A DNA stretch of 64,000 nt, taken from NCBI GenBank assembly GCA_009787915.1, contig WQSK01000001.1:7119-71118 (forward strand), given 5' to 3'. This DNA is from Bacillota bacterium (lineage in GTDB: Bacteria > Bacillota > Clostridia > Christensenellales > UBA1242). Numbering within the stretch: the stretch's first letter is position 1; every line of letters starts with the position of its first letter. Position numbers and translations under genes: made by a program. Of the stretch, positions 18,243-63,666 are shown piece by piece. Under the pieces are notes generated by a model. The model did no database searches, was not told the origin of the DNA, and saw only the letters and a program-made list of their open reading frames with translations.

Positions 18243-20090
18243 ATGAAAAAGAATCGGCGCCCGTCCTACACAAAAGGTATCAAACGCTATGCGGTATATT
18301 TTTTGTTGTCCATGGCGGCGTTAGAGGCGTTGGCACTTTATTTCCCGATTTTGTTACAGCGCGTCACGATTACGGCGGAACAACAATTTATGGCGGAGTC
18401 CACAGACATAGCCCCGTTGGTGTGGCAGTCGCTTTTGGTACTTGGATTCATTGTCGTGATTTTTGCGGTGTTCTTTTTGACAGAGTGGCTTGGTGCAGTT
18501 TATACAAACAAATATTCGGCAAACATAAGGGCGGCGCTTTACCAAAAGTTCAGCAAACTGTCAGGGGAGCAAATCGACAGAATTGGTGTAGCAAAAATTT
18601 TGCCTACTATTATGAACGACACAAACTGGTTACGGACATACCACCGTCGCAAGATATCCATGCTTGTGTTTTTTCCTGTGGCTATTGTTGGGAGTATAAT
18701 CTTTTTGTTTACCCTAAGTTGGATTTACGCAGTGTTTGCGTTGGCAACAATTCCGTTTGTTGGATTGTTTTATTTTTTAAACATCAAAAGAATGGGCAGG
18801 TTCGTTCCACCAAGCGTTGAATCGTATGATGAGATGTACCTCAACATGAAAGAGGGGATAAGAGGCGCGCGTGATATTCGTATATTAGGTAAAGCAGATG
18901 AAAGGGCGCAGGATTTTGAAGGGCACGTTGCCAACAACCGCCGCCAAGCCTTGGCAACAACACGCGGTCATGCGATGAGTACAGGCTTTCATGCGATATT
19001 GTTTACGCTTGTTACGGTTCTTATCATTTTGTTTGCGTCCACTGGCCAACTGACACAGGGTGAATATAGAACCATTGTTTACCTTTCGACCGCTATACAA
19101 TATATCAACCGTATTTGGGCGGGGTCGCACCAAATCTTTGTTTGGTTCCTTGACACAATCCCTAGATGTAAATATACATACAAACGACTTGACGCTTACT
19201 ATGCTATGACCGAGGAAAAAGAACCTTGCGGGCTAAATAGTTTGCCTGTATACAAAAAAAACACGGTCAAGTTAAACAATGTTTCTTATAAGAAACAACT
19301 TTCTTGTGTGAACATTGAGATTCCAGAGGGCAAATTTGTCGGTATCGTCGGAGGTATCGGGAGTGGAAAAAGCATCCTTGGGAGTTTGCTTTTGCAACTT
19401 GACCAGCCAGAGGACGGTCTTATTACATTTAACGAAATTGATATAGCACAGATTAATCCAAGTTTTTGGAGGCGCGATTTTGTAAGTTACTGTCACAACG
19501 CACAAATTATACCTGGGACGATTCGTGATAACTTAAAGATACTTAACCCGTCGCTGACTGATGAACAAATTTTGGATGTGTTCAAAGAACTTGGGGCTAT
19601 GCGTTTTGTAAAACAGTTTGATAATTTCTTGGACTTTGAAATCAAAGACGGGTCTTTGGTTCCCGAGGGTATCAAAAACGTTATCTCTTTGGTAAGAACG
19701 GTTTTGAAACCAGCAAGCCTTTATGTGTTCAACCAATGTTTCGAACACGTTAGGGATTCTTATATACAAAAACTGATAGCGAAACTTAAACGCGAGAAAA
19801 AGACCGCGGTTTTCATGTCGCTTAATGTGACGGTATGTAAAGCGTGTCAACGTCTTTATGTTCTTAAAAATGGTGAAGTTACTGGGCAGGGTACACATGC
19901 GGGGCTTATGAGGTCAAACCCAGGGTATCGCGAGTTCCACGCATCCAACATCGGTACAATGGTTTACGAGGATGATAAAATTGCACAAGAGGTTCCGACA
20001 ACCACGGGCGAGGAGGATACAGTCCAAACGGTAAACCTAACAGAGGAAACCCACGTTCAGGTTTCTGCGGAGGCGGCGGGAAAACTATGA
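18243..20090 (+). CDS. ABC exporter half-transporter (TMD-NBD) with degenerate NBD
   Basis: Six-TM domain. Walker A GGIGSGKS is intact, but the signature position reads LVPEG, Walker B reads LYVFNQ, and the switch His is absent. Confidence 0.85.
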   Translation: MKKNRRPSYTKGIKRYAVYFLLSMAALEALALYFPILLQRVTITAEQQFMAESTDIAPLVWQSLLVLGFIVVIFAVFFLTEWLGAVYTNKYSANIRAALYQKFSKLSGEQIDRIGVAKILPTIMNDTNWLRTYHRRKISMLVFFPVAIVGSIIFLFTLSWIYAVFALATIPFVGLFYFLNIKRMGRFVPPSVESYDEMYLNMKEGIRGARDIRILGKADERAQDFEGHVANNRRQALATTRGHAMSTGFHAILFTLVTVLIILFASTGQLTQGEYRTIVYLSTAIQYINRIWAGSHQIFVWFLDTIPRCKYTYKRLDAYYAMTEEKEPCGLNSLPVYKKNTVKLNNVSYKKQLSCVNIEIPEGKFVGIVGGIGSGKSILGSLLLQLDQPEDGLITFNEIDIAQINPSFWRRDFVSYCHNAQIIPGTIRDNLKILNPSLTDEQILDVFKELGAMRFVKQFDNFLDFEIKDGSLVPEGIKNVISLVRTVLKPASLYVFNQCFEHVRDSYIQKLIAKLKREKKTAVFMSLNVTVCKACQRLYVLKNGEVTGQGTHAGLMRSNPGYREFHASNIGTMVYEDDKIAQEVPTTTGEEDTVQTVNLTEETHVQVSAEAAGKL

Positions 20091-20106
20091 CGAATGTAAT
20101 GAGGAA

Positions 20107-20137
20107 CAAGGTTCTTGAACGTAGTGAGAGGTTCTTA
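20107..20137. repeat. degenerate copy D of the hairpin family
   Basis: CAAGGTTCT TGAACGTAGTGAG AGGTTCTTA sits between the two ABC genes. Flanks are conserved but the inner stem is broken. Confidence 0.45.
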
Positions 20138-51434: not shown

Positions 51435-51511
51435 TGGTAGGGATGAGTGGACTCGAACCACCGACCACCGCCTTATCAGAGCGGTGCTCTAACCAACTGA
51501 GCTACATCCCT
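51435..51511 (-). tRNA. tRNA-Ile (anticodon GAU)
   Basis: Hand-folded cloverleaf: acceptor AGGGATG/CATCCCT, D-arm GCTCAGTTGGTTAGAGC, anticodon loop CTGATAA, T-arm GGTGGTTCGAGTCCACT, encoded CCA. Confidence 0.9.
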
Positions 51512-51525
51512 ACGAGTGCAACGAG

Positions 51526-51569
51526 TAGGGATGCAAGGTTCTGACGTAGTCAGGTTCTTTCAATCCCTA
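51526..51569. repeat. covarying hairpin family, copy A
   Basis: TAGGGAT G CAAGGTT CTGAC GTA GTCAG GTTCTTT CA ATCCCTA. The outer stem has the same sequence as the tRNA-Ile acceptor stem. Confidence 0.7.
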
Positions 51570-51603
51570 TGAACGAGTGCAATAAACTTTTATATCATAC
51601 TGT

Positions 51604-52161
51604 ATGCGACAAGTCAAGCCTGTTGCACTAGTTGGCTTGATGTTTTGTGAAAGGGTGTGCTATGATGGTGGCATGATTATTTGCAAAGGAATACTTGGCG
51701 AGGAGAAAACGATTGAGGCGAAGGACCTTAAATTTGCGGTATCGGTTTATGCCGTTGCGATTCGTGAAAACAAGATTTTGATTTCCCCGCAATGGTGTGA
51801 TAACGGATATGACTTCCCAGGCGGACATATCGATTTGGGCGAGGTCCACACAGACGCCCTTGTGCGCGAGGTCAAAGAAGAAACTGGTATGGATATAAAA
51901 CCTGGTAACCCGATTGCGGTGGGTACGTCTTTTTTTGTGACGCCTAGGCGTAAAGAATGTCATCAATCGGTACAAATTTATTTTGAAGCAACTGTTGTGG
52001 GCGGGGAGATTTCGACCTCTGGCTTTGACGAAGGGGAGTCGGCATATGCCAAGGAAGCAAAATTTGTTACTTTAAAAGAACTAAAAAAAATGAAGTGGAT
52101 GAATACAAACCAAAAACCTATGACCGAGATTTTGCGGTATCTTGAAGGCAAGACAAAATGA
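51604..52161 (+). CDS. Nudix hydrolase
   Basis: Nudix box GGHIDLGEVHTDALVREVKEETGM. ATG lies 5 nt after TATCAT (51593-98). Confidence 0.8.
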   Translation: MRQVKPVALVGLMFCERVCYDGGMIICKGILGEEKTIEAKDLKFAVSVYAVAIRENKILISPQWCDNGYDFPGGHIDLGEVHTDALVREVKEETGMDIKPGNPIAVGTSFFVTPRRKECHQSVQIYFEATVVGGEISTSGFDEGESAYAKEAKFVTLKELKKMKWMNTNQKPMTEILRYLEGKTK

Positions 52162-52880
52162 TTGCAAAAATTACGGATGATAAAACCATTGTTGTTTATG
52201 ACAAGAGCCAATTCGATTGGTACGCAATAAGGAACTCGGGTCAGATTTTTGTTGACCCGCCATGTGTTGTTACCGAGGAATCCAACAAAATTGTGATTAA
52301 AGCAACTGGTAAAAAAGACAGTCGGTGGCTTTTTGATTTCTTTGATTTAGGAACGGATTACAATGCGATAAAAAAAGACTTGGCGGGCTTTGGACTCTTG
52401 TGCGACGCGATGAAGTTTGGTTTCGGAATCAGGATTTTAAAACAACCCTTTGTGTCTTGCGCGATTTCGTTTATAATCTCGGCGAACAACAATATAAAAA
52501 GGTTCGCCAAAACAATCGAACAAATTGATTTTGATGATTTGGAAAAATATACGGTGGAGGACTTTGCAAGGATGGGGTGCGGATATCGTGCGCCGTATCT
52601 ATATAACGCTGTGCGCCAACTTAAAAGTATGTCGTTCGAGGAACTAAAAACTTTTGACAACGCGCGATTGAGAAAAACCCTTATGAGCATATCGGGGGTT
52701 GGGCCTAAGGTCGCGGATTGTATTATGTTGTTTGCTTTTCACAGGTTGGATGTGGCACCCGTGGATACGTGGATTGCGCGCGCGAACTTGCCCCAAACAA
52801 TCATGGGGCATAGGTACGCAGGGGTTGCGCAACAATACGTGTTTTACTATTTACAACACTTAAAAAAATCGTTAAAATAA
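52158..52880 (+). CDS. ogg: 8-oxoguanine DNA glycosylase (HhH-GPD, OGG type)
   Basis: ISGVGPKVADCIMLFAF...VAPVDTWI, giving the HhH, catalytic Lys and Asp pattern. Confidence 0.8.
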   Translation: MIAKITDDKTIVVYDKSQFDWYAIRNSGQIFVDPPCVVTEESNKIVIKATGKKDSRWLFDFFDLGTDYNAIKKDLAGFGLLCDAMKFGFGIRILKQPFVSCAISFIISANNNIKRFAKTIEQIDFDDLEKYTVEDFARMGCGYRAPYLYNAVRQLKSMSFEELKTFDNARLRKTLMSISGVGPKVADCIMLFAFHRLDVAPVDTWIARANLPQTIMGHRYAGVAQQYVFYYLQHLKKSLK

Positions 52881-52884
52881 AATC

Positions 52885-53322
52885 ATGCAAATAATAGTCA
52901 ATGTTGTTATTGAAAAAGAGGGCAAAGTCCTTATGGTTCAAGAAAACTGGGGCAAGTTCGTAGGGGTTTGGAATTTCCCAGCAGGACGCCTTGACGAAAA
53001 CGAGGGGGTCTTTGCCGCCGCAATTCGTGAGGCAAAAGAAGAAACAGGCTATGACGTTGAGTTGACAGGTGTGTTGGATATCCAGAATTGTGTCTATCCC
53101 GACAGACACGTTATCCATATTATTTTTACCGCTAAAATTATTGGAGGGGAAATTAAGTTCGACCCCAAAGAAATCATGGATGTAAAATTTATCGAGATTA
53201 AAAAACTTTTGGGTATGGGGGATAAAGAATTGCGGTCAAGCATTTGTCGAAAGGCAACGATTCAGAGGTTGGCGGACAAAAAGGTTTTTCCACTTGAAAT
53301 AGTTAGGGATTTCAAAATATGA
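52885..53322 (+). CDS. Nudix hydrolase
   Basis: Nudix box GRLDENEGVFAAAIREAKEETGY. Confidence 0.8.
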   Translation: MQIIVNVVIEKEGKVLMVQENWGKFVGVWNFPAGRLDENEGVFAAAIREAKEETGYDVELTGVLDIQNCVYPDRHVIHIIFTAKIIGGEIKFDPKEIMDVKFIEIKKLLGMGDKELRSSICRKATIQRLADKKVFPLEIVRDFKI

Positions 53323-53897
53323 TTGAATTTTTTCAAATTCATGTTCCGATGTGGGTTTGGGGGATTAGTCAGGCAGTTGGCTTTGTGGGCATGGTTATAA
53401 TTTTTATCGCGCTCCAACAAAAGTCGAAAACACGACAACTTTATTTACAGTCTTTGGCATTGGTTTTTGCCGTTATAGCAAACTCTTTGATTCTTAACAT
53501 GATACTGGTTGCGAACCTATCTGTGAATGTTATTAAAAATTTTACTTATGCCGTACTTGATTCCCGAAAGGATAAAATAAAAAATTGGACCAAACATTTC
53601 TTTTTTGCCCTGTTCACGGTTTTAAGTTTTACCGTAACATTTCTTGTGTGGTTGTTTTTTAGGGATACCTGGACTTGGTTAAACCTTATAATACTTGTCA
53701 GTGTCGTGGTGATGAATTATGCAAAAGTATACAAAAGCGTCCATTGGGTCAAGTGGGGGATGTTTGCAAATGGTTGGTTGCTTTTGATAAATGCGTTTAT
53801 GTTTGCAAATATAATGGGAGGGATTTCTTCGTTAATAATAATAGTTTCGGTCATAGTCTTTTATATAAAAAGAAAAGAAAAAGAAATTAGGAGTTGA
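53319..53897 (+). CDS. inner-membrane protein, YgjV-like
   Basis: Six hydrophobic helices. N-terminus is similar to the partial gene at 1-202. Confidence 0.5.
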   Translation: MIEFFQIHVPMWVWGISQAVGFVGMVIIFIALQQKSKTRQLYLQSLALVFAVIANSLILNMILVANLSVNVIKNFTYAVLDSRKDKIKNWTKHFFFALFTVLSFTVTFLVWLFFRDTWTWLNLIILVSVVVMNYAKVYKSVHWVKWGMFANGWLLLINAFMFANIMGGISSLIIIVSVIVFYIKRKEKEIRS

Positions 53898-53929
53898 TTT
53901 TGTAAAACATTTATACTATAAATAGTATC

Positions 53930-54142
53930 ATGACTGAACACACTGAAACGCAGAGAATGAAAGACGGAAATTATCTTATTATAAAGTGGAATGTAAGCCC
54001 CATGGGTAGTTGGGAGGTCCGTGCCGCGGAGGTAAAAGATAAAGAAGTGGTCTGGGCTAGGAATGCGCTTGCTGCGGGTGAATCAACAAAGAAAAAAGAT
54101 TTATCTATCGCCAGGGGAAAAATGTACGAAGAACTACACTAA
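53930..54142 (+). CDS. hypothetical small protein
   Basis: ORF preceded by TTGATT, 17-nt spacer, TATAAA, then a 7-nt gap to the ATG. Confidence 0.45.
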   Translation: MTEHTETQRMKDGNYLIIKWNVSPMGSWEVRAAEVKDKEVVWARNALAAGESTKKKDLSIARGKMYEELH

Positions 54143-54694
54143 CCCGACGATTGCGATTATCATTAATATGACTCCGCTGAGCCAAGATAGGTCGATTGTC
54201 GTTCGTTCTTTTACTTTGCCACCAATATATTGTCCGACGGCAAAAACCAATGGGTCGGTTATTAGGGATAGGACGATTGCCGCGATTATAAAGGGAAGTC
54301 CTAGACTGGCAATAGTCGCCCCGAACCCAACCGCGAACCCGTCGAAGGATAGGGCTATGCCGATTGCAAAGGTTTCCCTCCATGTAAATTTTGTGTTTTC
54401 GGTGTTTTGTTCTCCGCGTGAAACAAACCATTGGGTCAACTTTATTATTCCAAAACAAAAAAGTATTCCAAACGAAACCCACTTTGTAATTTCGGGGTCG
54501 ATGATTGGCCTTAATAGATAACCTGAAAAAAGTCCCGCGCCGATTACGATGGTACCCAAAAGGTTTATTACAAAGATTTTTGATGGGGGGACTTTGTTTT
54601 TGCCTGTGCCATATCCAAACCCGCATGCGAATAGGTCAACCGATATGACTAAAATAAAGCCGATTACGACCCACGCGATATGTATGGACTCCAT
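54134..54694 (-). CDS. YtaF/MntP-family membrane protein
   Basis: SVDLFACGFGYG and SFDGFAVGFG duplicated DUF204-type motifs. Confidence 0.65.
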   Translation of the reverse strand: MESIHIAWVVIGFILVISVDLFACGFGYGTGKNKVPPSKIFVINLLGTIVIGAGLFSGYLLRPIIDPEITKWVSFGILFCFGIIKLTQWFVSRGEQNTENTKFTWRETFAIGIALSFDGFAVGFGATIASLGLPFIIAAIVLSLITDPLVFAVGQYIGGKVKERTTIDLSWLSGVILMIIAIVGLV

Positions 54695-54707
54695 GCCTCA
54701 GGTTATG

Positions 54708-55415
54708 TTAAAGGCTTAGTCCTTGTGAAATATCTTTTTTCAGGTTAATAGGGAATTTGTCGTTTAATTCAAATCGTTCGTCGGTCAGGGCAAGGTTTGT
54801 GAATATACTGCCAATCAAGCCCTGCATTTTGCTATAGACATTTACATGTTTAATTGTCTTGTCGGATTTTAAAACTTTGTTATCTTTTTCCAAACTGCAA
54901 TGGCAGGGTATCGCAACCGCTGGTGTCCCTGTCTTTGTGGCAAAATCAAACTGGTCAACAAGGGCAAGGCAAACCCTTTTCGATATTAACAAATCCATGT
55001 TTTGGTTTACATGTGGCGGATAAAAATAACTTTGTGAGGAAAAACACTCTGGCAAAACTTCAGGTTTTTGGCACGTATGTTCCCAGACATACATAGATTC
55101 GAGTTGCGCCCGAAAAGCATCCCACACGCCAATTGCCTCTACCAAAGTGTCGCCTGGACCAATATGTCCAAGGCTTTTCATATTTTTGATACCAGGTAAC
55201 AGTTTAAGAATCTTGTTTATCTTTAATGCAGACTCGGCGTTATAAGCAATTGCGTTCTTGCACATATCTGCCTCCTCGTCTAACTCGCTTAAAACGAATG
55301 TCTTGAATTTATAGAATCCCAAAAAGTTCTTGAAACTCAATCTGCTTTTCAAAAATTTGTCGATAAACTCTTGTGCCAGGATAGTTTTTCTGCATAATTC
55401 GATTGTACTCATCAT
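54708..55415 (-). CDS. hypothetical protein
   Basis: ORF. ATG at 55415/55412 preferred because it lies downstream of TGtTATATT. The track start at 55517 would overlap the upstream gene by 73 nt. Confidence 0.5.
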   Translation of the reverse strand: MMSTIELCRKTILAQEFIDKFLKSRLSFKNFLGFYKFKTFVLSELDEEADMCKNAIAYNAESALKINKILKLLPGIKNMKSLGHIGPGDTLVEAIGVWDAFRAQLESMYVWEHTCQKPEVLPECFSSQSYFYPPHVNQNMDLLISKRVCLALVDQFDFATKTGTPAVAIPCHCSLEKDNKVLKSDKTIKHVNVYSKMQGLIGSIFTNLALTDERFELNDKFPINLKKDISQGLSL

Positions 55416-55444
55416 GCTTAATATAACACAAAAACCTAGAAAAA

Positions 55445-55975
55445 TCAATACTTTTTTAAAAGTACCGCGTAAGGGCTGGTTGTCTTTGCCAGAGGTTTTT
55501 CTATTTTGACATCCCAATTTTGACCGAGCGATGAAACAAATTTTTCAACCTCAACCGCTTCGCTATCACCGCCTGTGTGACCTGGGTAGACAACAATCGC
55601 GATTCTTCCGTTGGGGGAGAGTTTACCGCAAAGTTTTTTCAACGCCATGATAGTTGTATCGGGCTTTGTAATTACAGATTTGTCCGAGCGGGGCAGATAC
55701 CCCAAGTTAAAAATCGCGGCCTTGATTTCGCCGTCAATATATTTGTCAAGGTTCTCGTGCCCGTCCTTTAAAAGGGTCGCGGAAAGATTGTTTTGCGATA
55801 ACAACTTGCCCGTGTTTGTGATAGCCAAATCTTGCACGTCAAAAGCGAACACTTTTGCACCTTGTGAGGCTAAAAACACTGTGTCGTGACCATTGCCCAT
55901 TGTCGCATCTACAACTATGTCGCCTTGGTGGATGACTTGTTTCAGGAAATCGTGCGCGATTTGTATTGGATTCAT
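55445..55975 (-). CDS. mnmM: SAM-dependent methyltransferase, YtqB/MnmM-like
   Basis: GDIVVDATMGNGHDTVFLA and AAIFNLGYLPRSDKS closely match my recollection of B. subtilis YtqB. Confidence 0.75.
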   Translation of the reverse strand: MNPIQIAHDFLKQVIHQGDIVVDATMGNGHDTVFLASQGAKVFAFDVQDLAITNTGKLLSQNNLSATLLKDGHENLDKYIDGEIKAAIFNLGYLPRSDKSVITKPDTTIMALKKLCGKLSPNGRIAIVVYPGHTGGDSEAVEVEKFVSSLGQNWDVKIEKPLAKTTSPYAVLLKKY

Positions 55976-56032
55976 AAAAATTATGTTATCACGTATTGAT
56001 TATTTAAAACAAGTGTGATAAAGTGTAATGTT

Positions 56033-56045
56033 CGGAGGGTTACCG
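56033..56045 (+). repeat. fragment copy of the tRNA-Ser 5' end (13 nt)
   Basis: CGGAGGGTTACCG equals 56173-56185. Confidence 0.8.
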
Positions 56046-56088
56046 CTAGGAGCGCAAGCGACGTCGGGAACCTGAAGGAACGAAGTTA

Positions 56089-56113
56089 CGGAGGGTTACC
56101 GAAGTGGTCATAA
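56089..56113 (+). repeat. fragment copy of the tRNA-Ser 5' end (25 nt, acceptor plus D-arm)
   Basis: CGGAGGGTTACCGAAGTGGTCATAA equals 56173-56197. Confidence 0.85.
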
Positions 56114-56147
56114 GAACCTGGCTTGCGCCAGAACCTTGGACCACTCC
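56101..56147. repeat. covarying hairpin family, copy C (opposite orientation to A and B)
   Basis: GAAGTGGTC ATAAGAACC TGGC TTGC GCCA GAACCTTG GACCACTCC. Confidence 0.7.
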
Positions 56148-56173
56148 GTGGTATAATCGTTCCAAAATTGCTC

Positions 56174-56262
56174 GGAGGGTTACCGAAGTGGTCATAACGG
56201 GGCGGTCTTGAAAACCGTTAGGGTGCAAGCCCACAAGAGTTCGAATCTCTTACCCTCCTCCA
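56174..56262 (+). tRNA. tRNA-Ser (anticodon UGA), class II with long variable arm
   Basis: Hand-folded: acceptor GGAGGGT/ACCCTCC, anticodon loop CTTGAAA, variable arm GGGTGCAAGCCC, T-arm AGAGTTCGAATCTCT, discriminator T, encoded CCA. TGgTATAAT promoter at 56149-57. Confidence 0.9.
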
Positions 56263-57776
56263 AGCGATTTAATATGCGGACTGGAAAGTTCGTTGTAATC
56301 AATGCCTTGTTCGTGCAAGGTAATTTTAAGGTCGTTTAGGGTTATCGGATCGACTTTGTCAAAGTTATAAAACATAAAAATTCCGTGTTCCAAAACCCAA
56401 ATAGAATTAACAAATCCATGTATGATTTTCTTTTGGTACGTAGGGTCGTTTATATCTCCGCCAATAAATTGTTGCAGTCGTTTTCTATAATCTTCCGCAG
56501 TTCTCGGCAAGTTAGATATATGTCGGAGTTTTGACAACTCGATGTTTAAGTCACTTTTTTGTATCTCGAGGTCTTTGCTACGTTGGTTGATTTTTGAAAC
56601 TATTGTTTGACCTTGTGCCACAAGTAAAGTGTCAATCAATTTTTCAATTTCCCGGTCGATGACAGATATGCGTTTTTCGTACTCTTTAACCCGTTGCGTG
56701 GTTATATTATTGGCGTGATAATCAGAGAGCAATTTACTTGCACGTTCTATGTTCTTTGCGTTTGATATGAACTCGATAATGTCTTGGACAACCGACTTTT
56801 CTAACTCGGACTTGTTCTCGTTTGATTTATGACAATCCTTGAACTTGTGTCTGTTACTGCAAACATAGTATCTAAAATTTGTTTCGCCATTTCGGACTTT
56901 ACCGCAAACGCCATTCATAGTAGCACCACAATGTCCGCAGTATGCCTTGCCAGTCAAAAGATACTCGACCTTTGCTTTACCTTGGGCGGACAAACGCTTT
57001 TTCGTTGCACACATCTTTTGTACTTCTTCAAAAAGTTTATCGTCGATAAGCCTGGGGTATATGTTGGTGTATTCAACACCATGACGTTCAAGTATTCCGA
57101 TGTAGTTTTTGTTTTTCAAGTTGTGGTAAATGTTTGTGACACTCCAAGGCTCGCCACTTCTATTGCGTATACCTTTTTCGTTAAGTTCTTTGCAAATCTC
57201 TTTCTTAGGTTTTCCGCTTGCATAGTCTGAAAAAATCTTTTTCATAATTTCGGCTTTGGGTTTATCAATTTGAATTTTCTTGTCAACAACCTTGTACCCA
57301 TACGTCACAATTCCGCCAGTCCAGTTCCCCTTGTCAAGATTGATTTGATTGCCACGTTTAATTTTCTGAGAGAGTTCCACTGAATAGAACTGGTTGTAAC
57401 CCTCTATGACACTTTCTAACAAAATGCCCTCTGGCGAGTCCGCTATGGCTTCCGTTGCCGACACGACCTTAACGCCTGCTTCTTTAAGTTGTCGTTTATA
57501 AACCACACTTTCATATTTGTCCCTAGAAAATCGGTCAAGTTTATACACCAAAATCACGTCAAATATTTCTTGTTTGCTGTCCGAAATCATGCGTTGAAAT
57601 TCAGGACGTTTGTCATTAGTCCCCGTCATAGCACGATCAACATACTCGCCTACAATGGCGAGATTTTGTCGTTGGGCAAATTCCCCACAGACTTTAACCT
57701 GTCCTTCAATCGACTGTTCCGTTTGGTTGTTGGAACTGTACCTTGCGTAGATTACTGCTTTGTTCATTTTACACAC
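56250..57776 (-). CDS. large serine recombinase
   Basis: N-terminal resolvase domain AVIYARYSSNNQ...SIEGQ, recombinase domain, Zn-ribbon (CGHCG...C..RYYVC), coiled coil. The last codons overlap the tRNA-Ser 3' end. Confidence 0.9.
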   Translation of the reverse strand: MCKMNKAVIYARYSSNNQTEQSIEGQVKVCGEFAQRQNLAIVGEYVDRAMTGTNDKRPEFQRMISDSKQEIFDVILVYKLDRFSRDKYESVVYKRQLKEAGVKVVSATEAIADSPEGILLESVIEGYNQFYSVELSQKIKRGNQINLDKGNWTGGIVTYGYKVVDKKIQIDKPKAEIMKKIFSDYASGKPKKEICKELNEKGIRNRSGEPWSVTNIYHNLKNKNYIGILERHGVEYTNIYPRLIDDKLFEEVQKMCATKKRLSAQGKAKVEYLLTGKAYCGHCGATMNGVCGKVRNGETNFRYYVCSNRHKFKDCHKSNENKSELEKSVVQDIIEFISNAKNIERASKLLSDYHANNITTQRVKEYEKRISVIDREIEKLIDTLLVAQGQTIVSKINQRSKDLEIQKSDLNIELSKLRHISNLPRTAEDYRKRLQQFIGGDINDPTYQKKIIHGFVNSIWVLEHGIFMFYNFDKVDPITLNDLKITLHEQGIDYNELSSPHIKSLGGG

Positions 57777-57810
57777 TCCTTTTTGCCCTTAACAAGCAAC
57801 CGATCGTAGG

Positions 57811-57941
57811 GCTGCCTTTTGGGCTTAGCCGACAAACCGCACAACCGCCCAAGGCAGTCAAGGTGGAAGTTCCAAGGGAAAACTACCTTGACGGTCTTGG
57901 GCGTGTTGTGCTACCAACATCGGCTATGCCCAAAAGGGAGC
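57811..57941. other. 130-nt extended imperfect hairpin, single-strand-origin-like
   Basis: Nested helices: 57815-24/57928-37, 57826-32/57920-26, 57839-45/57905-11, 57846-53/57896-903 and 57857-64/57885-92. Confidence 0.6.
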
Positions 57942-58402
57942 ACACCAACTGTACCACAAGTGATGGGAAAAGTTAGGTTTTTGCTGTGTAAAGTATTGGT
58001 TTTGTGTAGGTAAAGTCATGGGACAAATTAAAAACGATTTTTTAAAATTCTAGTAGTCAAAATGGGTACTTCTTGCGTTCTCCATGTAGGGAAAGTTTTT
58101 TTGATTTACCCCCTCACTTTTGACCTTTGTCGTGACCTACTGTTAAGGCAAAAGAAAAACAAATGACAGCAAATCTTTAAGAGGTGGCTGTGCAAAAAAC
58201 TATTCGAGTACAAATCGGCAGTTATCGGCTTCGTGACAAAGTTACGAGGTCGCTTTTGCCATGCGTGCCGATTTATGCAGAAGTCACAACAAAGGTAGCA
58301 GTAAGTCTTGCGGAACGAGTGGCAAGCCTTCTAGTCGATTGCTATCAAATGAGCAAAGCGAATGAGCCGAGAGTGTGCAAACACACTTGCGACCGCACAG
58401 TG

Positions 58403-58488
58403 GTGGCGAGAGACGAGGCTTGCCCGTCTCCGCCACGTGCGCCGCAAGGGGTTGCTAGCGAAGCGGTTGTCATACTTGATATTGGCAA
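58403..58488 (+). other. GC-rich 12-bp hairpin plus small hairpin presenting ACTTGATATT in its loop; candidate nick/double-strand origin
   Basis: Stem 58403-15 / 58425-36. TGTCA (58469-73) / TGGCA (58484-88) flank the loop TACTTGATAT. The element lies 34 nt upstream of the rep ATG. Confidence 0.45.
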
Positions 58489-58521
58489 CACTTAAAAATT
58501 CTAAAAGAGGTGGATAATCAC

Positions 58522-59448
58522 ATGGACAAGTTCATGTCAAAACGTGTTGAGAGGGTTTTGAAACCTAACGCACATTTATTATCTAAACAAAAGAGAGAGC
58601 AAGTAAATACTCGGATAAATCGGTTTAAGTTCTTTACTGAAATCATTTACTATCACGAACCTTTTGATATCCTGACTGGTAAGAAAGATTATAACTGGGT
58701 AGATACTGAAACTGGCAAAATCATCTCAGCGAGTAAACGAAAAGAGATAACAGACCAAGAGCAAATTGACGAATACGCAAGTCGTGGCGAGATTTTGGAA
58801 ATCGACAACGGATTTGACCGCAGTCAATACGAGAGTTGTCGCAGAGCAAAAGACAATTTTTATGGATATGCTTTGTGTAATGACTGGGTTTATTTTTGTA
58901 CTTTTACGATTGCGAAAAGCGAACATGACCATGATGACAAAGCAACAAAATACTACTGGCAAATGTTCCGCCAAAAGTTACAAAAGAGATTTCCAACTGT
59001 TAAGATCCTTGCAGTTCCTGAACGCCACGCCAAAGGCAACATTCATTTTCATGCTTTACTTGGGGATTGTGACTTAGAAAATATTTTAGTCGTGGCAATC
59101 AACCCACACACAAGCGAACCTGTATTACAAAGTGGTCGACAAGTTTATAATTTGCCACTCTGGGACAAAGGTTTTTCAACTGTTGTTAAAATCGACCAAG
59201 AGAGTATTGAAAACCAGTTGAAAGCAATCAACTACATTATTGGATATGTGACCAAGCAAGAGAACAGCATTGGGCTTAATCAGAAACGCTATTATCGAAC
59301 TAGAAACTTGGATTTCAAAAACACCGAGATAAAGTTTACTGACAAAGCGAAATATGAGAGTCTGCTATTAAGTACGTTTGATATAAACGCAAAACTCGTC
59401 AAACACAAAGAGAACGACAGAATGATTGTTTTTAGGGTGTACAATTAA
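58522..59448 (+). CDS. HUH rolling-circle replication initiator (two-Tyr, phiX gpA / gokushovirus VP4-like)
   Basis: Motif 1 FCTFTIA, motif 2 HFHALLG, motif 3 [11 protein letters not shown] 58522 follows an AGAGG RBS. Confidence 0.75.
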
Positions 59449-59473
59449 GAAGGTTAATGGTACAATCACAACG

Positions 59474-60451
59474 ATGAAAATCGTTTCATTTTTTGCAGGT
59501 GCTGGGGGTCTTGACCTTGGCTTTGAAAAAGCGGGGTTTCACACTGTTTGGGCGAATGAATACGATAAAACAATTTGGGCTACTTATGAAAAAAATTTTC
59601 CTAATTCTAAACTTGATAAACGAAGCATAACAGATGTATCTCCCAAAGAAGTTCCCGATTGTGACGGAATCATTGGCGGACCGCCATGTCAAAGTTGGAG
59701 TGAAGCCGGTGCGGGGCGTGGCATTGATGACGATAGGGGTAAATTGTTTTTAGACTATATTAGGATATTAAAAGATAAAAAGCCAAAGTTTTTCTTGTGT
59801 GAAAATGTGGGCGGTATGCTTTTAGATAAACACAAAGTTAATTTCGATAAGTTTATTTCCGAGTTTGAAAGTGCAGGATATAATGTTTCTTGGCAACTTG
59901 TTGACGCTAATGATTTTGATGTCCCTCAAAATCGCAAGCGTGTCATCATCGTGGGATATAGAAAAGATTTAAATAAAAAGTTTGAATTTCCACCTGTGCA
60001 AGAATATAAACCAAATTTGAAAGACGCTATATGGGATTTGCGACAAGCCCAACCTGCTAAACAGCATAATAAGTCATGGGGGCTTGAATTACCAATTCCG
60101 AATCACGAATATATGAATGGCGGATTCTCTACAATCTTTATGTCACGTAATCGTGTACGTTCTTGGGACGAACCTTCTTTCACTATCCAAGCAGGTGGCA
60201 GACACGCCCCTATCCACCCACAAGCCCCTAAAATGCTTTTTGTCGAACAAAACAAAAGAATATTCGTTCCCGGTAAAGAAGATGATTATAGGCGGTTGTC
60301 CGTGCGTGAGTGTGCAAGAATACAAACATTCCCCGATAGTTTTATTTTTATTTATAATGACATTGCCGACGGTTACAAAATGGTGGGTAATGCCGTGCCA
60401 GTAAACCTAGCGTATGCGATTGCAAAAAAGATAAAGGAAGATTTGAAATGA
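59474..60451 (+). CDS. DNA (cytosine-5) methyltransferase, M.HaeIII-like
   Basis: Motif [46 protein letters not shown]. The TRD segment [33 protein letters not shown] resembles M.HaeIII as I recall it. Confidence 0.9.
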
Positions 60452-61404
60452 GAACAACAATAAACTCAACAATTAAAGGCAAGGCATATGAATACGCTTG
60501 CGTGTTGGCGATAAAGGAACTTGTCACGCCTATTCGTCCAGTTGAAATCATAGCGAATTCAAGTCTTGAAATAGCAGAACAAAGATATAACGAAATCACG
60601 CAAGACGAGCAAGCCGAAATGTTGAGATCCGCAAAAGCGGGCATGAGCAAAATTATTGAAATGGAACCCAAAGTAACCGACGACGGAGATGATAAATTGA
60701 CCATATCGCTACAACCCGATAATTTGGCGAAAGGTGGGGATATTCGTGATGTCCTGATTATCCGACGTTCAATCAAGTGGGAAATCGGAGTTTCGGTTAA
60801 ACATAACCACGAGGCGTTAAAACACTCACGGCTTTCGATGAGTATTGATTTTGGCAAACTTTGGCTTGGTGCAAATTGTTCCAAAGATTACTTCACTGAA
60901 ATAAAACCTTTGTTTGACATGTTGTCAAAAGAAAAGTCTTGCGGGAAATTGTGGTCGCAGTTGCCAAGCAAGGAGAATGCCGTATATGTTCCGTTATTAA
61001 CTGCTTTCAAAAATGAGTTTATTAAACTTAATTCTCAAAACGAAGACGTAACCGAAAATCTAATTCGCTATCTGCTTGGAAGCAACGGGAAAGACTATTA
61101 CAAACTTATCCACCGCAATAATAACATTGCTACGATTATTCCATTTAACTTGTTCGGCACATTAAACACAAGCGGTAAAAACAAGCCAACTATAACTATC
61201 CCAAATATCGAATTACCTACGCGAATTATTGAGTTTGATTTCAAAGAAAAATCACAAACCACGTTGATATTAACAATGAATAATGGTTGGTCAATTTCTT
61301 TCCGAATTCACAATGCAAGTTCCAAAGTTGAAACAAGTTTGAAATTCGATATTAATTTACAAAGCAAGCCCGAAAAAATGTTTTATATAGATGTTAAGTG
61401 GTAA
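60448..61404 (+). CDS. putative cognate type II restriction endonuclease
   Basis: ATGA overlap with the MTase stop. 318 aa. No independent motif recognised, so the call rests on position and size. Confidence 0.5.
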
Positions 61405-61485
61405 GTACCTAAATAGTTCCAAACTTGAAGATAATTTTATATTGTCTTTGAGTAGAATTCGTGGTAGTATCTGGGTGGAGGCATT

Positions 61486-62553
61486 TTGAGAAAGAAAAAT
61501 CCTAGATACAAAGAATATTTGAGACGCAAAAGTAGGAAGAAAGGAGTGCGTAAAGCTGAACGCCGTTACCATAAACCATGCACTAGTAGGAAGAAAGAAG
61601 CTATCAAAATAAAAAAATATAAAAAAACTGATAGATGCCACTTACAAAAGATTAAAGAAAAGAGTTTTAGTCTTCCAGAGGATTTTAGCTTGCTTAGTAA
61701 TCCAGAAGACGTGAAGAGCACTTTTCACTGTATTCGTGAATTCATGATTGCGAATAGAGGTCTGCGCATGAAGATAAAAATCGATGCTAGAAATATTAAA
61801 AATGCAACAGCAGATGCAGTAATGTACCTACTCGCGATGCTTAGAGACAAGCGGAATCAAAATGAAGGTATTAGGTGGTCTGGAGACCTCCCGCTAGTAG
61901 ATGGAGCAAGACGTGTATTTATGGAGTCAGGATTTCTTAGCTACGTTAATAGCTTAAATAATATTATCAAAAACGCCGATAAGGTTGCGATTAAAAATGG
62001 AAAAGAGGTTAAATCAGATCTTGCAAAAGCCATATGCGATTGGGTTATAGACAAAATTGGGTGTACTAGAAATGAAACGAAATTTTTGCAGAAGACTATT
62101 GTAGAGCTTATGGAAAACACGAAAGCACATGCTTACACTGATGACACAGATCTTTTAAAAGATTGGTATTTGTTTGTCGAAAAGCGCAGCTCGAAATTTG
62201 AGTTTGTATTTCTTGACACAGGTGGCAGTATACCTTCGACCATTAAAAAGAGATTTGGAGAAAAGGTTTTTGGTGCTAGGCAAGTAGATTTGATTGAGTC
62301 TGCTTTGGAGGGCGGAGAATTTCGTTCAACTACAAAACTTAAGCATCGAAACAAAGGCTTGCCAAATATTAAACAAAAAATTGAATATGGACATATTAAA
62401 AGTATGGTGATATTATCTAATAGGGCGAAGTGTGAACTGTATAAAGAAAATAATAATCTAGTTATAAAAAAAGATGAGCAAAAAAATAAATTATATGGTA
62501 CGCTATACTACTGGGAAGTAGACACTGTGAAATTGAAAGGAGAAGCATGTTAA
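61486..62553 (+). CDS. GHKL (anti-sigma-kinase-like) ATPase with an extremely basic ~60-aa N-terminus
   Basis: GGAGG RBS and TTG start. N-box IVELMENTKAHAY, G1-like FLDTGGSIP, G2-like NKGLPNI. The first 60 aa are about half Lys/Arg. Confidence 0.6.
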   Translation: MRKKNPRYKEYLRRKSRKKGVRKAERRYHKPCTSRKKEAIKIKKYKKTDRCHLQKIKEKSFSLPEDFSLLSNPEDVKSTFHCIREFMIANRGLRMKIKIDARNIKNATADAVMYLLAMLRDKRNQNEGIRWSGDLPLVDGARRVFMESGFLSYVNSLNNIIKNADKVAIKNGKEVKSDLAKAICDWVIDKIGCTRNETKFLQKTIVELMENTKAHAYTDDTDLLKDWYLFVEKRSSKFEFVFLDTGGSIPSTIKKRFGEKVFGARQVDLIESALEGGEFRSTTKLKHRNKGLPNIKQKIEYGHIKSMVILSNRAKCELYKENNNLVIKKDEQKNKLYGTLYYWEVDTVKLKGEAC

Positions 62554-62885
62554 TGGAAAAGATTAAGATAAATGTCGCACATGACTTTACTGAGATACCG
62601 GGTCCACGCTATAAAAAGGATGGTAAATTTTCTGGCGAGGAATTTAGGGATAAACACCTAATCCCTAACTACGATAAGGCAAAGGCTAATGGTGTAAAGA
62701 TAATGGTCAATCTTGACGGTGGGTATGGCTATCCAGTTTCTTTTCTCGAGGAATCTTTTGGTGGACTCGCAAGGATTTATAGAGACGATAATGTTGTGGG
62801 TATGTTTGATTTTGTTTCAAAAGAGGAGCCATCTTTGATAGATGATATCAGAAAATATATATTGGATGCGAATAAGAGGGTTTGA
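62547..62885 (+). CDS. STAS-like DUF4325 protein
   Basis: KIMVNLDGGYGYPVSFLEESFGGL fits the DUF4325 pattern. The start overlaps the upstream stop (ATG 62547, or TAATG at 62553). Confidence 0.6.
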   Translation: MLMEKIKINVAHDFTEIPGPRYKKDGKFSGEEFRDKHLIPNYDKAKANGVKIMVNLDGGYGYPVSFLEESFGGLARIYRDDNVVGMFDFVSKEEPSLIDDIRKYILDANKRV

Positions 62886-62886
62886 A

Positions 62887-63480
62887 ATGTCAACAAGAAT
62901 AATACAGAGGATATTTTTAATAATAGGTATATTTATCATTATTTCTCTAATTGTTTGGCTAGTACTTGCTTCGAGACTTGACATAAACAAAGAGTCTTTT
63001 TATCATATTTCTTTGTCGGAAGGTATACCAATTATTCTAATTGCCGTGGCAACGATGTTTCTGTCTTTTTGGTTTTCTAATAAAATCTCCGATGAGAAAA
63101 AGCAAAAAGAAACTATATATGAGTATCTTAAAAAGATTATAACCATGTTTGAGAAGATAGATTCTATTGTCGAGGCTTATGATTTAACATCGGCTGCTAA
63201 AATAAGAAATTTCACATGTTGCATGCAAGTTGTTAGTGCGTTTAGAAAGTTAAGCAATACAGTAGATACACTCAAAAAAATGGATGCGGAGCGCTTTTGT
63301 AAAGATGATTTATGTGCGTTAGAGTCACATATTAAGGAATTTAATGACTACATCACTGGGTTCAAGTTTGAAAATGATGTATCGGCCAAGTCGAGGAACG
63401 CTTTGATAATTAAAGTCGGAAAATTTACAAGTGACGCTGGTAATATAATTTTCATATTCGGAGTAAACCTATTTAGATAA
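62887..63480 (+). CDS. 2-TM membrane protein with ~110-aa cytoplasmic helical domain
   Basis: ATG lies 1 nt after the upstream stop. TM1 IFLIIGIFIIISLIVWLVLA, TM2 IPIILIAVATMFLSFWF. Confidence 0.6.
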   Translation: MSTRIIQRIFLIIGIFIIISLIVWLVLASRLDINKESFYHISLSEGIPIILIAVATMFLSFWFSNKISDEKKQKETIYEYLKKIITMFEKIDSIVEAYDLTSAAKIRNFTCCMQVVSAFRKLSNTVDTLKKMDAERFCKDDLCALESHIKEFNDYITGFKFENDVSAKSRNALIIKVGKFTSDAGNIIFIFGVNLFR

Positions 63481-63562
63481 TGAACCTCCCAACAACGCCA
63501 CGGCAGATAAACAACCTTGACAGTTCGTTTATTACGTCGTATGCTCCTCCAAGCGAAGCGCA

Positions 63563-63606
63563 GGAGAGGACAAGGTTCTCGCAGAAGCGAGGTTCTTACC
63601 CTCCTC
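63563..63606. repeat. covarying hairpin family, copy B (at the right junction of the element)
   Basis: GGAGAGGA CAAGGTT CTCGC AGAA GCGAG GTTCTTA CCCTCCTCC. The 3' strand is the duplicated tRNA-Ser 3' end. Confidence 0.7.
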
Positions 63607-63666
63607 CAAAATATGCTCGAAATTTGTGCCGAAAGTTCAGCAGAACCCAACCACGATGATTGATAT

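Follow-up and report, generated by a model that had tools for sequence, protein, structure and literature searches.

The hairpins that recur along the 64,000-nucleotide stretch of Bacillota bacterium contig WQSK01000001.1 analysed here (the window) are probably copies of a small (~45–65 nt), non-autonomous palindromic repeat of the general class that includes repetitive extragenic palindromic (REP) sequences, miniature inverted-repeat transposable elements (MITEs), BOX, and Correia elements. They apparently belong to a large, so far undescribed family of small palindromic repeats that is dispersed over the chromosomes of candidate-phyla-radiation bacteria and of gut or rumen Clostridia. The family is best filed as a new REP/MITE-like family, and it is unusual in that phyla share a core in the middle of its stem, its triloops are of the DNA type, one subtype carries a promoter, and its target duplications vary in length. 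A first-pass annotation of the window had described the hairpins as companions of tRNA genes and had considered a minihelix-like RNA. Our analysis led us to conclude that both the tRNA association and the minihelix idea arose from the sites at which three of the copies happened to land.

Results

Copies in the window and in other genomes

The pattern AAGGTTC..GGTTCTT, in which CAAGGTTCT and AGGTTCTT enclose a stem and a loop, matched the window four times, compared with 0.01 matches expected from 100 shuffles. A covariance model was built from 140 family members and then run on the window. It recovered exactly the copies A, B, C, and D, with scores of 41.3 bits for copy B, 39.3 for C, 37.8 for A, and 31.6 for D; the next match scored 15.2 bits. 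All four sites are where the first-pass annotation had placed them. Copy A occupies 51526..51569 on the plus strand (core hairpin, hereafter H, at 51534–51559), copy B 63563..63606 (+; H at 63571–63597), and copy C 56101..56147 (−; H at 56112–56138), and the inner stems of these three pair as had been noted (GAC/GTC, CGC/GCG, and GGC/GCC). Copy D, at 20091..20136 (+; core at 20108–20136), is a 46-nt insertion composed of CGAATGTAATGAGGAA and H. It had been recorded as a degenerate fourth copy; the hairpin exists, but it is not degenerate; its inner stem has a tandem G.A design that is seen in other members of the family.

Species-representative genomes were scanned with the pattern CAAGGTTCTNNSN{3,7}SNNAGGTTCTTW, and all family counts given here are among the matches listed. 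At least 119 loci with at least 149 exact-core copies were found, nearly all with a complementary inner stem. Many further copies exist, and the refutation that the first-pass annotation had foreseen does not apply. The hosts are almost all metagenome-assembled genomes (MAGs) of Patescibacteria (the candidate phyla radiation; Nealsonbacteria, Saccharibacteria, Shapirobacteria, Daviesbacteria, Paceibacteria, Blackburnbacteria, and Gribaldobacteria) and of Clostridia (Acutalibacteraceae, Ruminococcaceae, and Fimenecus), and the distribution over these two distant phyla is patchy.

Database searches gave no previously described counterpart. In the window, only two tRNAs reached the gathering threshold of Rfam 15, and E-value searches of Rfam with copy A and with the tandem pair of locus L213 gave only chance microRNA-type matches of 15–18 bits. 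BLAST searches of the consensus unit against plasmids and phages gave chance or coding matches only. In the searchable literature, no description was found of the sequence, nor of REP or MITE elements in Patescibacteria or Saccharibacteria. With the specific pattern, the viral collection contained a single true copy (L081). A looser pattern gave ~120 viral matches, of which only L081 was a true copy; most of the others fell in the coding sequence for K-V-L...E-V-L of a phage protein gene and in coding repeats. This conserved gene, which encodes ...DKVLFVKEVLGFG... (L027, L037, L046, and ~15 other viral loci), matches both arms in frame by chance and is a trap for pattern searches with the hairpin motif.

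Structure and covariation of the hairpin

In H, a near-invariant mid-stem, CAAGGTTCT/AGGTTCTT, supports an inner stem that is rich in G+C but variable in sequence and that in most copies ends in a C-GNA-G triloop. The two conserved strands had been taken as unpaired in the first-pass annotation. In fact, the arms AAGGTTC and GGTTCTT pair with each other (A-T, A-T, G-C, G.T, T.T, T.G, C-G, and T-A), with G.T, T.T, and T.G at the same three positions, which makes every copy a single long hairpin. The pairing persists in arm variants among the copies that the covariance model added: G-C is replaced with A-T in L177, T-A with C-G in L176, and a wobble with a Watson–Crick pair in L160, L212, and L193. 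These variants indicate both that the arms pair and that the three non-Watson–Crick positions are normally kept.

The inner stem covaries, as had been proposed from the copies in the window. Among 139 distinct copies it is paired in 98.4% of cells, and the number of double-sided changes was 185, compared with 62.5 in column shuffles; none of 500 shuffles gave a number as high, and the signal collapsed when the partner columns were slid. Of 140 copies, 59 have a C[GAA]G loop, and 74 have a GNA triloop with a closing C-G pair. The sequence GCGNAGC is known as an extraordinarily stable DNA mini-hairpin (PMC13037366). Inner-stem mismatches comprise eight G.T (G.U) and six A.C, with no excess of the former. 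We read the loop type and the mismatch balance as favouring a DNA hairpin on the GGTT strand. In RNA folding, the GGUU strand forms a continuous helix that is 0.7–5 kcal/mol more stable than its complement, because the G.U pairs close the internal loop. The DNA folding energy was uninformative for choosing the active strand, as both strands fold alike.

In the GGTT orientation, H is preceded by a lineage-specific block, the commonest of which is the mini-hairpin GAGC-GAA-GCGA, termed h1.

Insertion and multiplication

An empty site for copy D is present in three syntenic relatives, whose two ABC-transporter genes share an ATGA overlap. The 46 nt of copy D and a second (T)ATGA separate these genes in the window. 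The duplicated (T)ATGA lies at 20087–90 and 20137–40, inside the stop/start overlap, with the first gene stopping in the left ATGA and the second starting in the right one, and the 3′ arm GAGAGG of copy D occupies the position of the GGAGG ribosome-binding site of the relatives. At L143, a 50-nt h1+H unit interrupts a second, partial tRNA-Arg copy at GGATAT^AATAA without any duplication, and in L234 a diverged pseudo-copy of tRNA-Arg is entered at the identical point. Both loci, from two Clostridia MAGs, contain tandem tRNA-Arg genes (L143, 5563–5790; L234, 1350–1600), of which one is intact and the other, truncated or diverged, has the 50-nt unit in its D-loop. Copies with the type 1 block (see below) have T before and AT after the element. 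Insertion is thus into chromosomal DNA and, as a rule, immediately ahead of A(T).

Within genomes the element also multiplies, giving dispersed copies as well as tandem arrays. The arrays are common and have periods of 37–46 nt, and among the 39 copies on contigs available in full, nine lie within 150 nt of a contig end, compared with ~7% expected; the arrays and the contig-end enrichment point to multiple copies per genome. Inner stems are identical in 20% of within-genome pairs and in 1.9% of between-genome pairs. No copy was found in eight loci from seven related contigs (126 kb), whereas the window's ~68 kb has four. Empty sites for copies A and C were sought through homologues of an OGG-like gene, and none was obtained, the synteny not being conserved in five relatives.

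Target duplications at tRNA genes

Copies A, B, and C share one plan: target, loop, inverted target, H, and target again, with direct target duplications of 16, 15, and 25 nt, respectively. Copy A lies beside the tRNA-Ile(GAT) gene (51435..51511, −; identified by ARAGORN and Rfam). Its h1 (51506..51532, +) reads ATCCCTA-CGAGTGCAACGAG-TAGGGAT. The 5′ arm is complementary to the start of tRNA-Ile, and the loop is homologous to the family mini-hairpin GAGCGAAGCGA with a C-G to T-A change. The order is thus ATCCCTA with CGAGTGCAA (51506–21); TAGGGAT (51526–32), an inverted copy of tRNA-Ile positions −1 to +6, in keeping with the acceptor-stem sequence recognised in the first-pass annotation; H; and ATCCCTA..CGAGTGCAA at 51563..51582 (+), a direct duplicate of 51506–51521 that differs by a 4-nt indel and flanks copy A. 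The outer stem of copy A is TAGGGAT/ATCCCTA. A putative tRNA-Ile promoter, TTGACT-17-TATAAA, can be read at 51589–51617 (−) but was not flagged by the promoter scan. As copy A lies between this box and the tRNA-Ile gene, it would be in the tRNA leader.

Copies B and C both involve the intact tRNA-Ser(TGA) gene (56174..56262, +; ARAGORN and Rfam). For copy B, the plan comprises the tRNA-Ser 3′ end CTTACCCTCCTCCAA (56249–63), GCGAAGCGCA, GGAGAGG, H, and CTTACCCTCCTCCAA again. The last, a 15-nt duplicate at 63595..63609 (+), had been seen in the first-pass annotation and is the target duplication of copy B. The outer stem is GGAGAGG/CCCTCCTCC with a bulge, and h1 (63544..63570, +) is CTCCTCC-AAGCGAAGCGCA-GGAGAGG, which contains GCGAAGC. 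The outward promoter reported upstream of copy B was also found, with consensus boxes TTGACA-17-TATGCT at 63517–45. For copy C, the plan comprises the first 25 nt of the intact tRNA-Ser region (56173–97), an inverted, partly deleted copy of 56077–56109 (56139..56163, +), H, and a 25-nt duplicate of tRNA-Ser positions −1 to 24 (56089..56113, +). This duplicate, whose contact with copy C had been recognised, ends in the D-loop, where copy C begins. The inverted segment forms the outer stem of copy C, GGAGTGGTC/GACCACTTC with one G.T pair, and contains TGGTATAAT (56149–57), which, as read from the sequence, is likely an extended −10 box for tRNA-Ser. A third partial tRNA-Ser 5′ fragment of 13 nt lies in 56033..56088 (+) and is followed by a lone h1-like mini-hairpin, GAGCGCAAGCGA, and degenerate sequence. 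This solitary mini-hairpin (+; 56046–56088), between the first and second tRNA-Ser 5′ fragments, may be a remnant of an older unit in the opposite orientation.

Flanking duplications also occur elsewhere in the family. Direct repeats of at least 9 nt flank 18 of 107 copies, compared with 3.4 in permutations. They measure 10 nt at L229 and 21–38 nt at L134; copy D, L229, and copies A, B, and C together span 4–25 nt. The outer stems, whose complementarity had been read as compensatory change, show no covariation and are barely above permuted controls across the family (mean 3.7 versus 3.2 bp; stems of at least 7 bp in 11.8% versus 3.5%). In copies A, B, and C, the outer stems derive from the insertion sites and do not reflect independent compensatory evolution.

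Proximity to tRNA genes is likewise not a property of the family: 12 of the 149 copies (8%) have a tRNA within 300 nt, five in sense and seven in antisense, and the other 137 have none. The minihelix reading fits only copy B, which ends in ACCCTCC-T-CCA. The stem of copy C comes from the D-arm region, and the duplicated segment, or 3′ flank, of copy A runs into the tRNA leader, not into CCA.

The block preceding H

Three types of block precede H. The type 1 block, (T)TATTAYGAGCGAAGCGARTAA, occurs in Clostridia and some Patescibacteria and forms a second small hairpin (h1) centred on GCGAAGC. The strict h1 motif stands directly 5′ of H in 28 of 39 occurrences, and copies A and B carry h1 as CGAGTGCAACGAG and GCGAAGCG, respectively. 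The type 2 block, in Ruminococcaceae, retains the GAGC...GCGA base with a covarying extension. The type 3 block, in several Patescibacteria, reads CCTTGATTCGCTAAGGTAAAACATATAATCTTGAA on the other strand, a sigma70-like −35/−10 pair, and the start codons of unrelated genes lie 11–25 nt downstream of the −10 box.

Further observations concern these blocks. A near-identical 35-nt promoter block, TTGATTCGCTAAGGTAAAACATATAATCTTGAA, stands before unrelated genes in different Patescibacteria species (L171, L187, L193, L200, L201, L230, and L235). Because the start codon comes 11–25 nt after its −10 box, the mRNAs would have very short leaders or none. A 174-nt block (L157, 1960–2133; L158, 6938–7107) comprises the hairpin, direct repeats of ~28 nt, a ribosome-binding site, and the first 18 codons. 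It is 85% identical in two species, although beyond it the open reading frames (ORFs) have nothing in common, and it has the look of a 5′ module that can be transferred. Acinetobacter plasmids contain GAGCGAAGCGA-type mini-hairpins with no H. In the Acinetobacter baumannii plasmid pA85-2 (L241, 8205–8731), two h1-type GAGCG(A/T)AGCGA mini-hairpins at positions 280–325 have no H after them; they sit in an unannotated stretch, and the small plasmid family is represented in 186 Acinetobacter records.

Gene context, neighbouring transposases and the island

Most copies (121 of 149) lie outside long ORFs. In the commonest arrangement, the hairpin is antisense to both neighbouring genes, and a median of 31 nt separates it from the preceding stop codon and ~100 nt from the following start codon. 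In the family as a whole, the 5′ neighbour more often has its start (64) than its stop (41) towards the hairpin, and the GGTT strand is on the C-rich strand at a ratio of ~2:1 (34 versus 17 where the skew is strong, p = 0.02). Copies A and C, but not B, are flagged as terminator-like in the GGTT orientation, which across the family is in the minority with regard to the gene upstream. Several copies (L143, L203, and L124) have a canonical terminator next to them. Inverted pairs, as in L135, simply flank an MFS transporter gene.

The neighbouring ORFs were clustered all against all. One mobile-element family emerged, RAYT-like Y1 transposases, in six of the 119 loci, all from Patescibacteria (L150, L214, L215 at 875–1606, L228, L230, and L236). 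RAYT was rejected as the cognate mobiliser, since each of the six genes has a different hairpin of its own on either side, e.g. GGAAGGAGCGAAGCTCCTTCC (L215) or TACTACGAGAACAGTTCTCGTAGTA, and not H. Several independent REP-like systems seem to coexist in the Patescibacteria genomes with these genes. Within the 772 kb that the loci comprise, neither an autonomous arrangement of h1, a gene, and H nor a TnpA (Y1) gene between the same two hairpins was found.

The window also contains a 7.3-kb island (56268..63543), which we regard as context and not as part of the element. It carries a large serine recombinase (56250–57776, −), an ORF2/G2P-type Rep, and a HaeIII-type restriction–modification pair (a HaeIII-like methylase and endonuclease). 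Copies B and C are inverted relative to each other and bracket tRNA-Ser and the island, as the first-pass annotation had pointed out, but they are not its limits: the island is bounded by the 13-bp direct repeat CTCCTCCAAGCGA at 56255–67 and 63544–56, the right-hand unit of which doubles as the first 13 nt of h1 of copy B. When the island was removed in silico, tRNA-Ser was directly followed by a complete copy B. This restoration indicates that the element was already present when the island entered its h1, and that copies B and C are not island ends. The island, the right junction, and copy B were also assembled from a second sample (L247, SRR9983922).

Discussion

In the mechanism that we propose, the active form of the element would be a single-stranded DNA hairpin made by the GGTT strand, and its invariant mismatched mid-stem would be the recognition site of a structure-specific nuclease or transposase acting in trans. 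Because HUH/Y1-type enzymes recognise mismatched DNA hairpins, an enzyme of this type supplied in trans is our best guess for the mobilising activity. The strong palindrome may provoke local intrastrand template switching, by which inverted and direct copies of the target would be added. Copy D would have split the ATGA overlap of the ABC operon, copy A would have landed in the tRNA-Ile leader at the 5′ end of the tRNA, copy C in the D-loop of tRNA-Ser, and copy B at the tRNA-Ser 3′ end. Insertions into essential sequence would survive only where a duplication makes good the damage to the tRNA or to the stop and start codons. The stems may look borrowed from tRNAs because only those versions that kept the tRNA and the stop and start codons intact survived.

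Several properties are shared with known systems. Like the REP/BIME sequences mobilised with RAYT in Enterobacteria, Pseudomonas, and Stenotrophomonas, the hairpins are short, imperfect extragenic palindromes, often just past stop codons, with conserved stem mismatches, clusters and arrays, compensatory changes between copies, and a presumed role as single-stranded DNA hairpins. REP elements have a conserved GT(A/G)G head 5′ of the palindrome (PMC2817692), whereas the alignments show no GTAG or GTGG on either side of the family hairpin. No rayt gene is flanked by H, and the RAYT-like genes nearby have other hairpins. The arrays of the family are head-to-tail and those of REP alternate; the family conserves a mid-stem across phyla, with variable target duplications, whereas REP sequences are normally species-specific.

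The two different hairpins h1 and H are arranged like the left-end and right-end hairpins of the IS200/IS605-derived PATEs; moreover, one insertion (L143) is clean and without duplication, and the mismatches within the hairpin could serve recognition. PATEs, however, insert 3′ of a fixed tetra- or pentanucleotide without target duplication, whereas many copies of the family have flanking duplications. Furthermore, no TnpA or TnpB was found near the copies, the replication strand bias is weak, and the 5′ boundary varies. MITEs have terminal inverted repeats and a target duplication of fixed length, in contrast to the family, which has no terminal repeats beyond the hairpin itself and duplications of 0 to ~38 nt. 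The Correia elements of Neisseria and the BOX and RUP elements of pneumococci are also small non-autonomous intergenic repeats; BOX shares the modular build with a tandemly repeated middle unit, and Correia elements can carry outward promoters and form terminator-like hairpins. The family differs from all three in the absence of terminal inverted repeats or a fixed TA duplication, in its unrelated sequence, and in its hosts.

Rickettsia palindromic elements resemble the family in that their insertion into genes is tolerated by the host, the targets of the family being tRNA genes and a two-gene junction. The family elements are much shorter, show no sequence similarity to them, and are tolerated through target duplication instead of in-frame insertion. 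Integron attC sites are likewise single-stranded DNA hairpins recognised by structure, with conserved unpaired stem positions and a variable terminal stem-loop. The family has the core CAAGGTTCT...AGGTTCTTA and no RYYYAAC/GTTRRRY boxes, its outermost stem is not conserved, and neither an integrase cluster among the neighbouring ORFs nor a cassette organisation was seen. Finally, the d(GCGNAGC) mini-hairpin of the phage G4 and RSF1010 ssiA origins and of the N4 hairpin promoters is exactly the motif of h1 and of most H loops (PMC13037366). Those are single functional sites at phage or plasmid origins, whereas the family consists of dispersed chromosomal repeats, with one viral copy of H.

The interpretation as a REP/MITE-like repeat also faces difficulties. 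The target duplications range from none to ~38 nt, and to our knowledge no known transposase yields such a range. Neither a transposase nor a nuclease is consistently adjacent to the copies among the neighbouring ORFs of the loci. REP-like repeats are normally species-specific, so the conservation of a 17-nt core across phyla is unusual for them; the search pattern itself fixed the 17 core bases, and the invariance of the core is therefore to be judged solely from the ~10 extra copies that the covariance model recovered. One and the same genome can contain copies whose inner stems differ yet are each fully paired, which also fits selection for a cellular function. The orientation bias of ~2:1, for genes and for GC skew, is weaker than in IS200/IS605 elements. 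Folding with DNA parameters gives both strands the same 3×3 internal loop and favours neither.

Alternatively, the hairpin may be a punctuation mark of DNA or transcription useful to the host (a terminator or insulator hairpin followed by a promoter, or a single-strand signal for priming or protein loading), kept by selection and spread horizontally without transposition of its own. We consider this explanation unlikely. The position of the copies between a stop and the next start, the terminator-like flags of copies A and C in the GGTT orientation, and the paired stems retained in divergent copies of one genome fit such a role, as does the Patescibacteria subtype with its conserved TTGATT..TATAAT promoter and real start codons 11–25 nt past the −10 box. 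A CCGAAGG mini-hairpin is, moreover, present in the RSF1010 ssiA priming signal (PMC13037366). However, terminators and promoters do not need a 17-nt core shared across phyla. The terminator-like orientation is in the minority, several copies have canonical terminators beside them, and the patchy distribution, with no copy in the 126 kb from relatives, also speaks against it. The insertions into tRNA genes and into the ATGA overlap look accidental, and the GGTT strand tends to be the C-rich one, whereas a signal for lagging-strand priming would belong on the other side.

It is also conceivable, but in our judgement improbable, that the family is a new kind of self-spreading single-stranded DNA element with no need of a dedicated transposase beside it, whose mid-stem is recognised by a conserved host enzyme or an enzyme in trans and which spreads by replication template switching. 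Such an element would yield target-derived stems and triplicated target segments (direct, inverted, direct), and would create new promoters before genes in the tiny genomes of Patescibacteria.

A structured RNA, cis-regulatory or small, in the GGUU orientation is still harder to uphold. Its G.U/U.U/U.G mid-stem would bind a protein, and copy B would be a tRNA-Ser-like CCA minihelix. The stronger folding of the GGUU strand and the strong covariation agree with an RNA; so do the consensus promoter upstream of copy B, which ends in ACCCTCCTCCA, and copy D, which is transcribed in the GGUU orientation inside an operon and supplies the Shine–Dalgarno sequence. On the other hand, the commonest arrangement is antisense to both neighbouring genes, and the tRNA-proximal copies occur in both orientations. 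The C-GNA-G triloops are typical of DNA and are not GNRA or UNCG tetraloops, the inner stem has no excess of G.U over A.C mismatches, and no Rfam family matches. The insertion with target duplication, the tandem arrays, and the enrichment at contig ends indicate repeated DNA, and the acceptor-like stem is confined to copy B.

There is very little to recommend the view that integrative elements, the serine-recombinase island among them, attach or recombine at the hairpin, with copies B and C as the ends of a unit carrying tRNA-Ser. Their inverted, bracketing arrangement, the integration of the island inside h1 of copy B, and the conserved 174-nt hairpin block before a recombinase-like ORF in L157 and L158 suggested this idea. 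The island, however, has its own 13-bp direct repeat as limits, and the inner stems of copies B and C are each self-complementary, which means that they are not hybrid attL/attR sites of one event. In addition, most copies flank ordinary housekeeping genes with no recombinase nearby, the ORFs of L157 and L158 have only 18 residues in common, and the reconstructed pre-island sequence holds a complete copy B, so that the hairpin was apparently intact without the island. The notion, raised with the first-pass annotation, that the copies are decayed duplicates of tRNA halves such as the tRNA-Ser 3′ half draws on the tRNA-Ser fragments in copies B and C and the tRNA-Ile fragment in copy A, but it is refuted by the family census, in which the core recurs in at least 149 copies from other genomes that include no tRNA sequence, and by copy D, which has no tRNA sequence, and the core itself, which matches no part of tRNA-Ile or tRNA-Ser.

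If the reading as a REP/MITE-like palindromic repeat is true, the odd tRNA fragments in the window are explained, and a tRNA-linked RNA gene is no longer needed. A repeat family without description in Rfam or the searchable literature would then be common to distant Patescibacteria and Oscillospirales-type Clostridia. It would break MAG assemblies, because its copies sit at contig ends, and its insertions would hit tRNA genes and operon junctions. The invariant mismatched mid-stem between two variable stems, together with the GNA triloops, provides a defined substrate with which the enzyme that acts on it could be sought. Template switching driven by palindromes may have a small-scale bacterial example in the inverted and direct duplications of the target, and the ready-made promoter in at least one subtype may rewire expression in genomes with very few known mobile elements.

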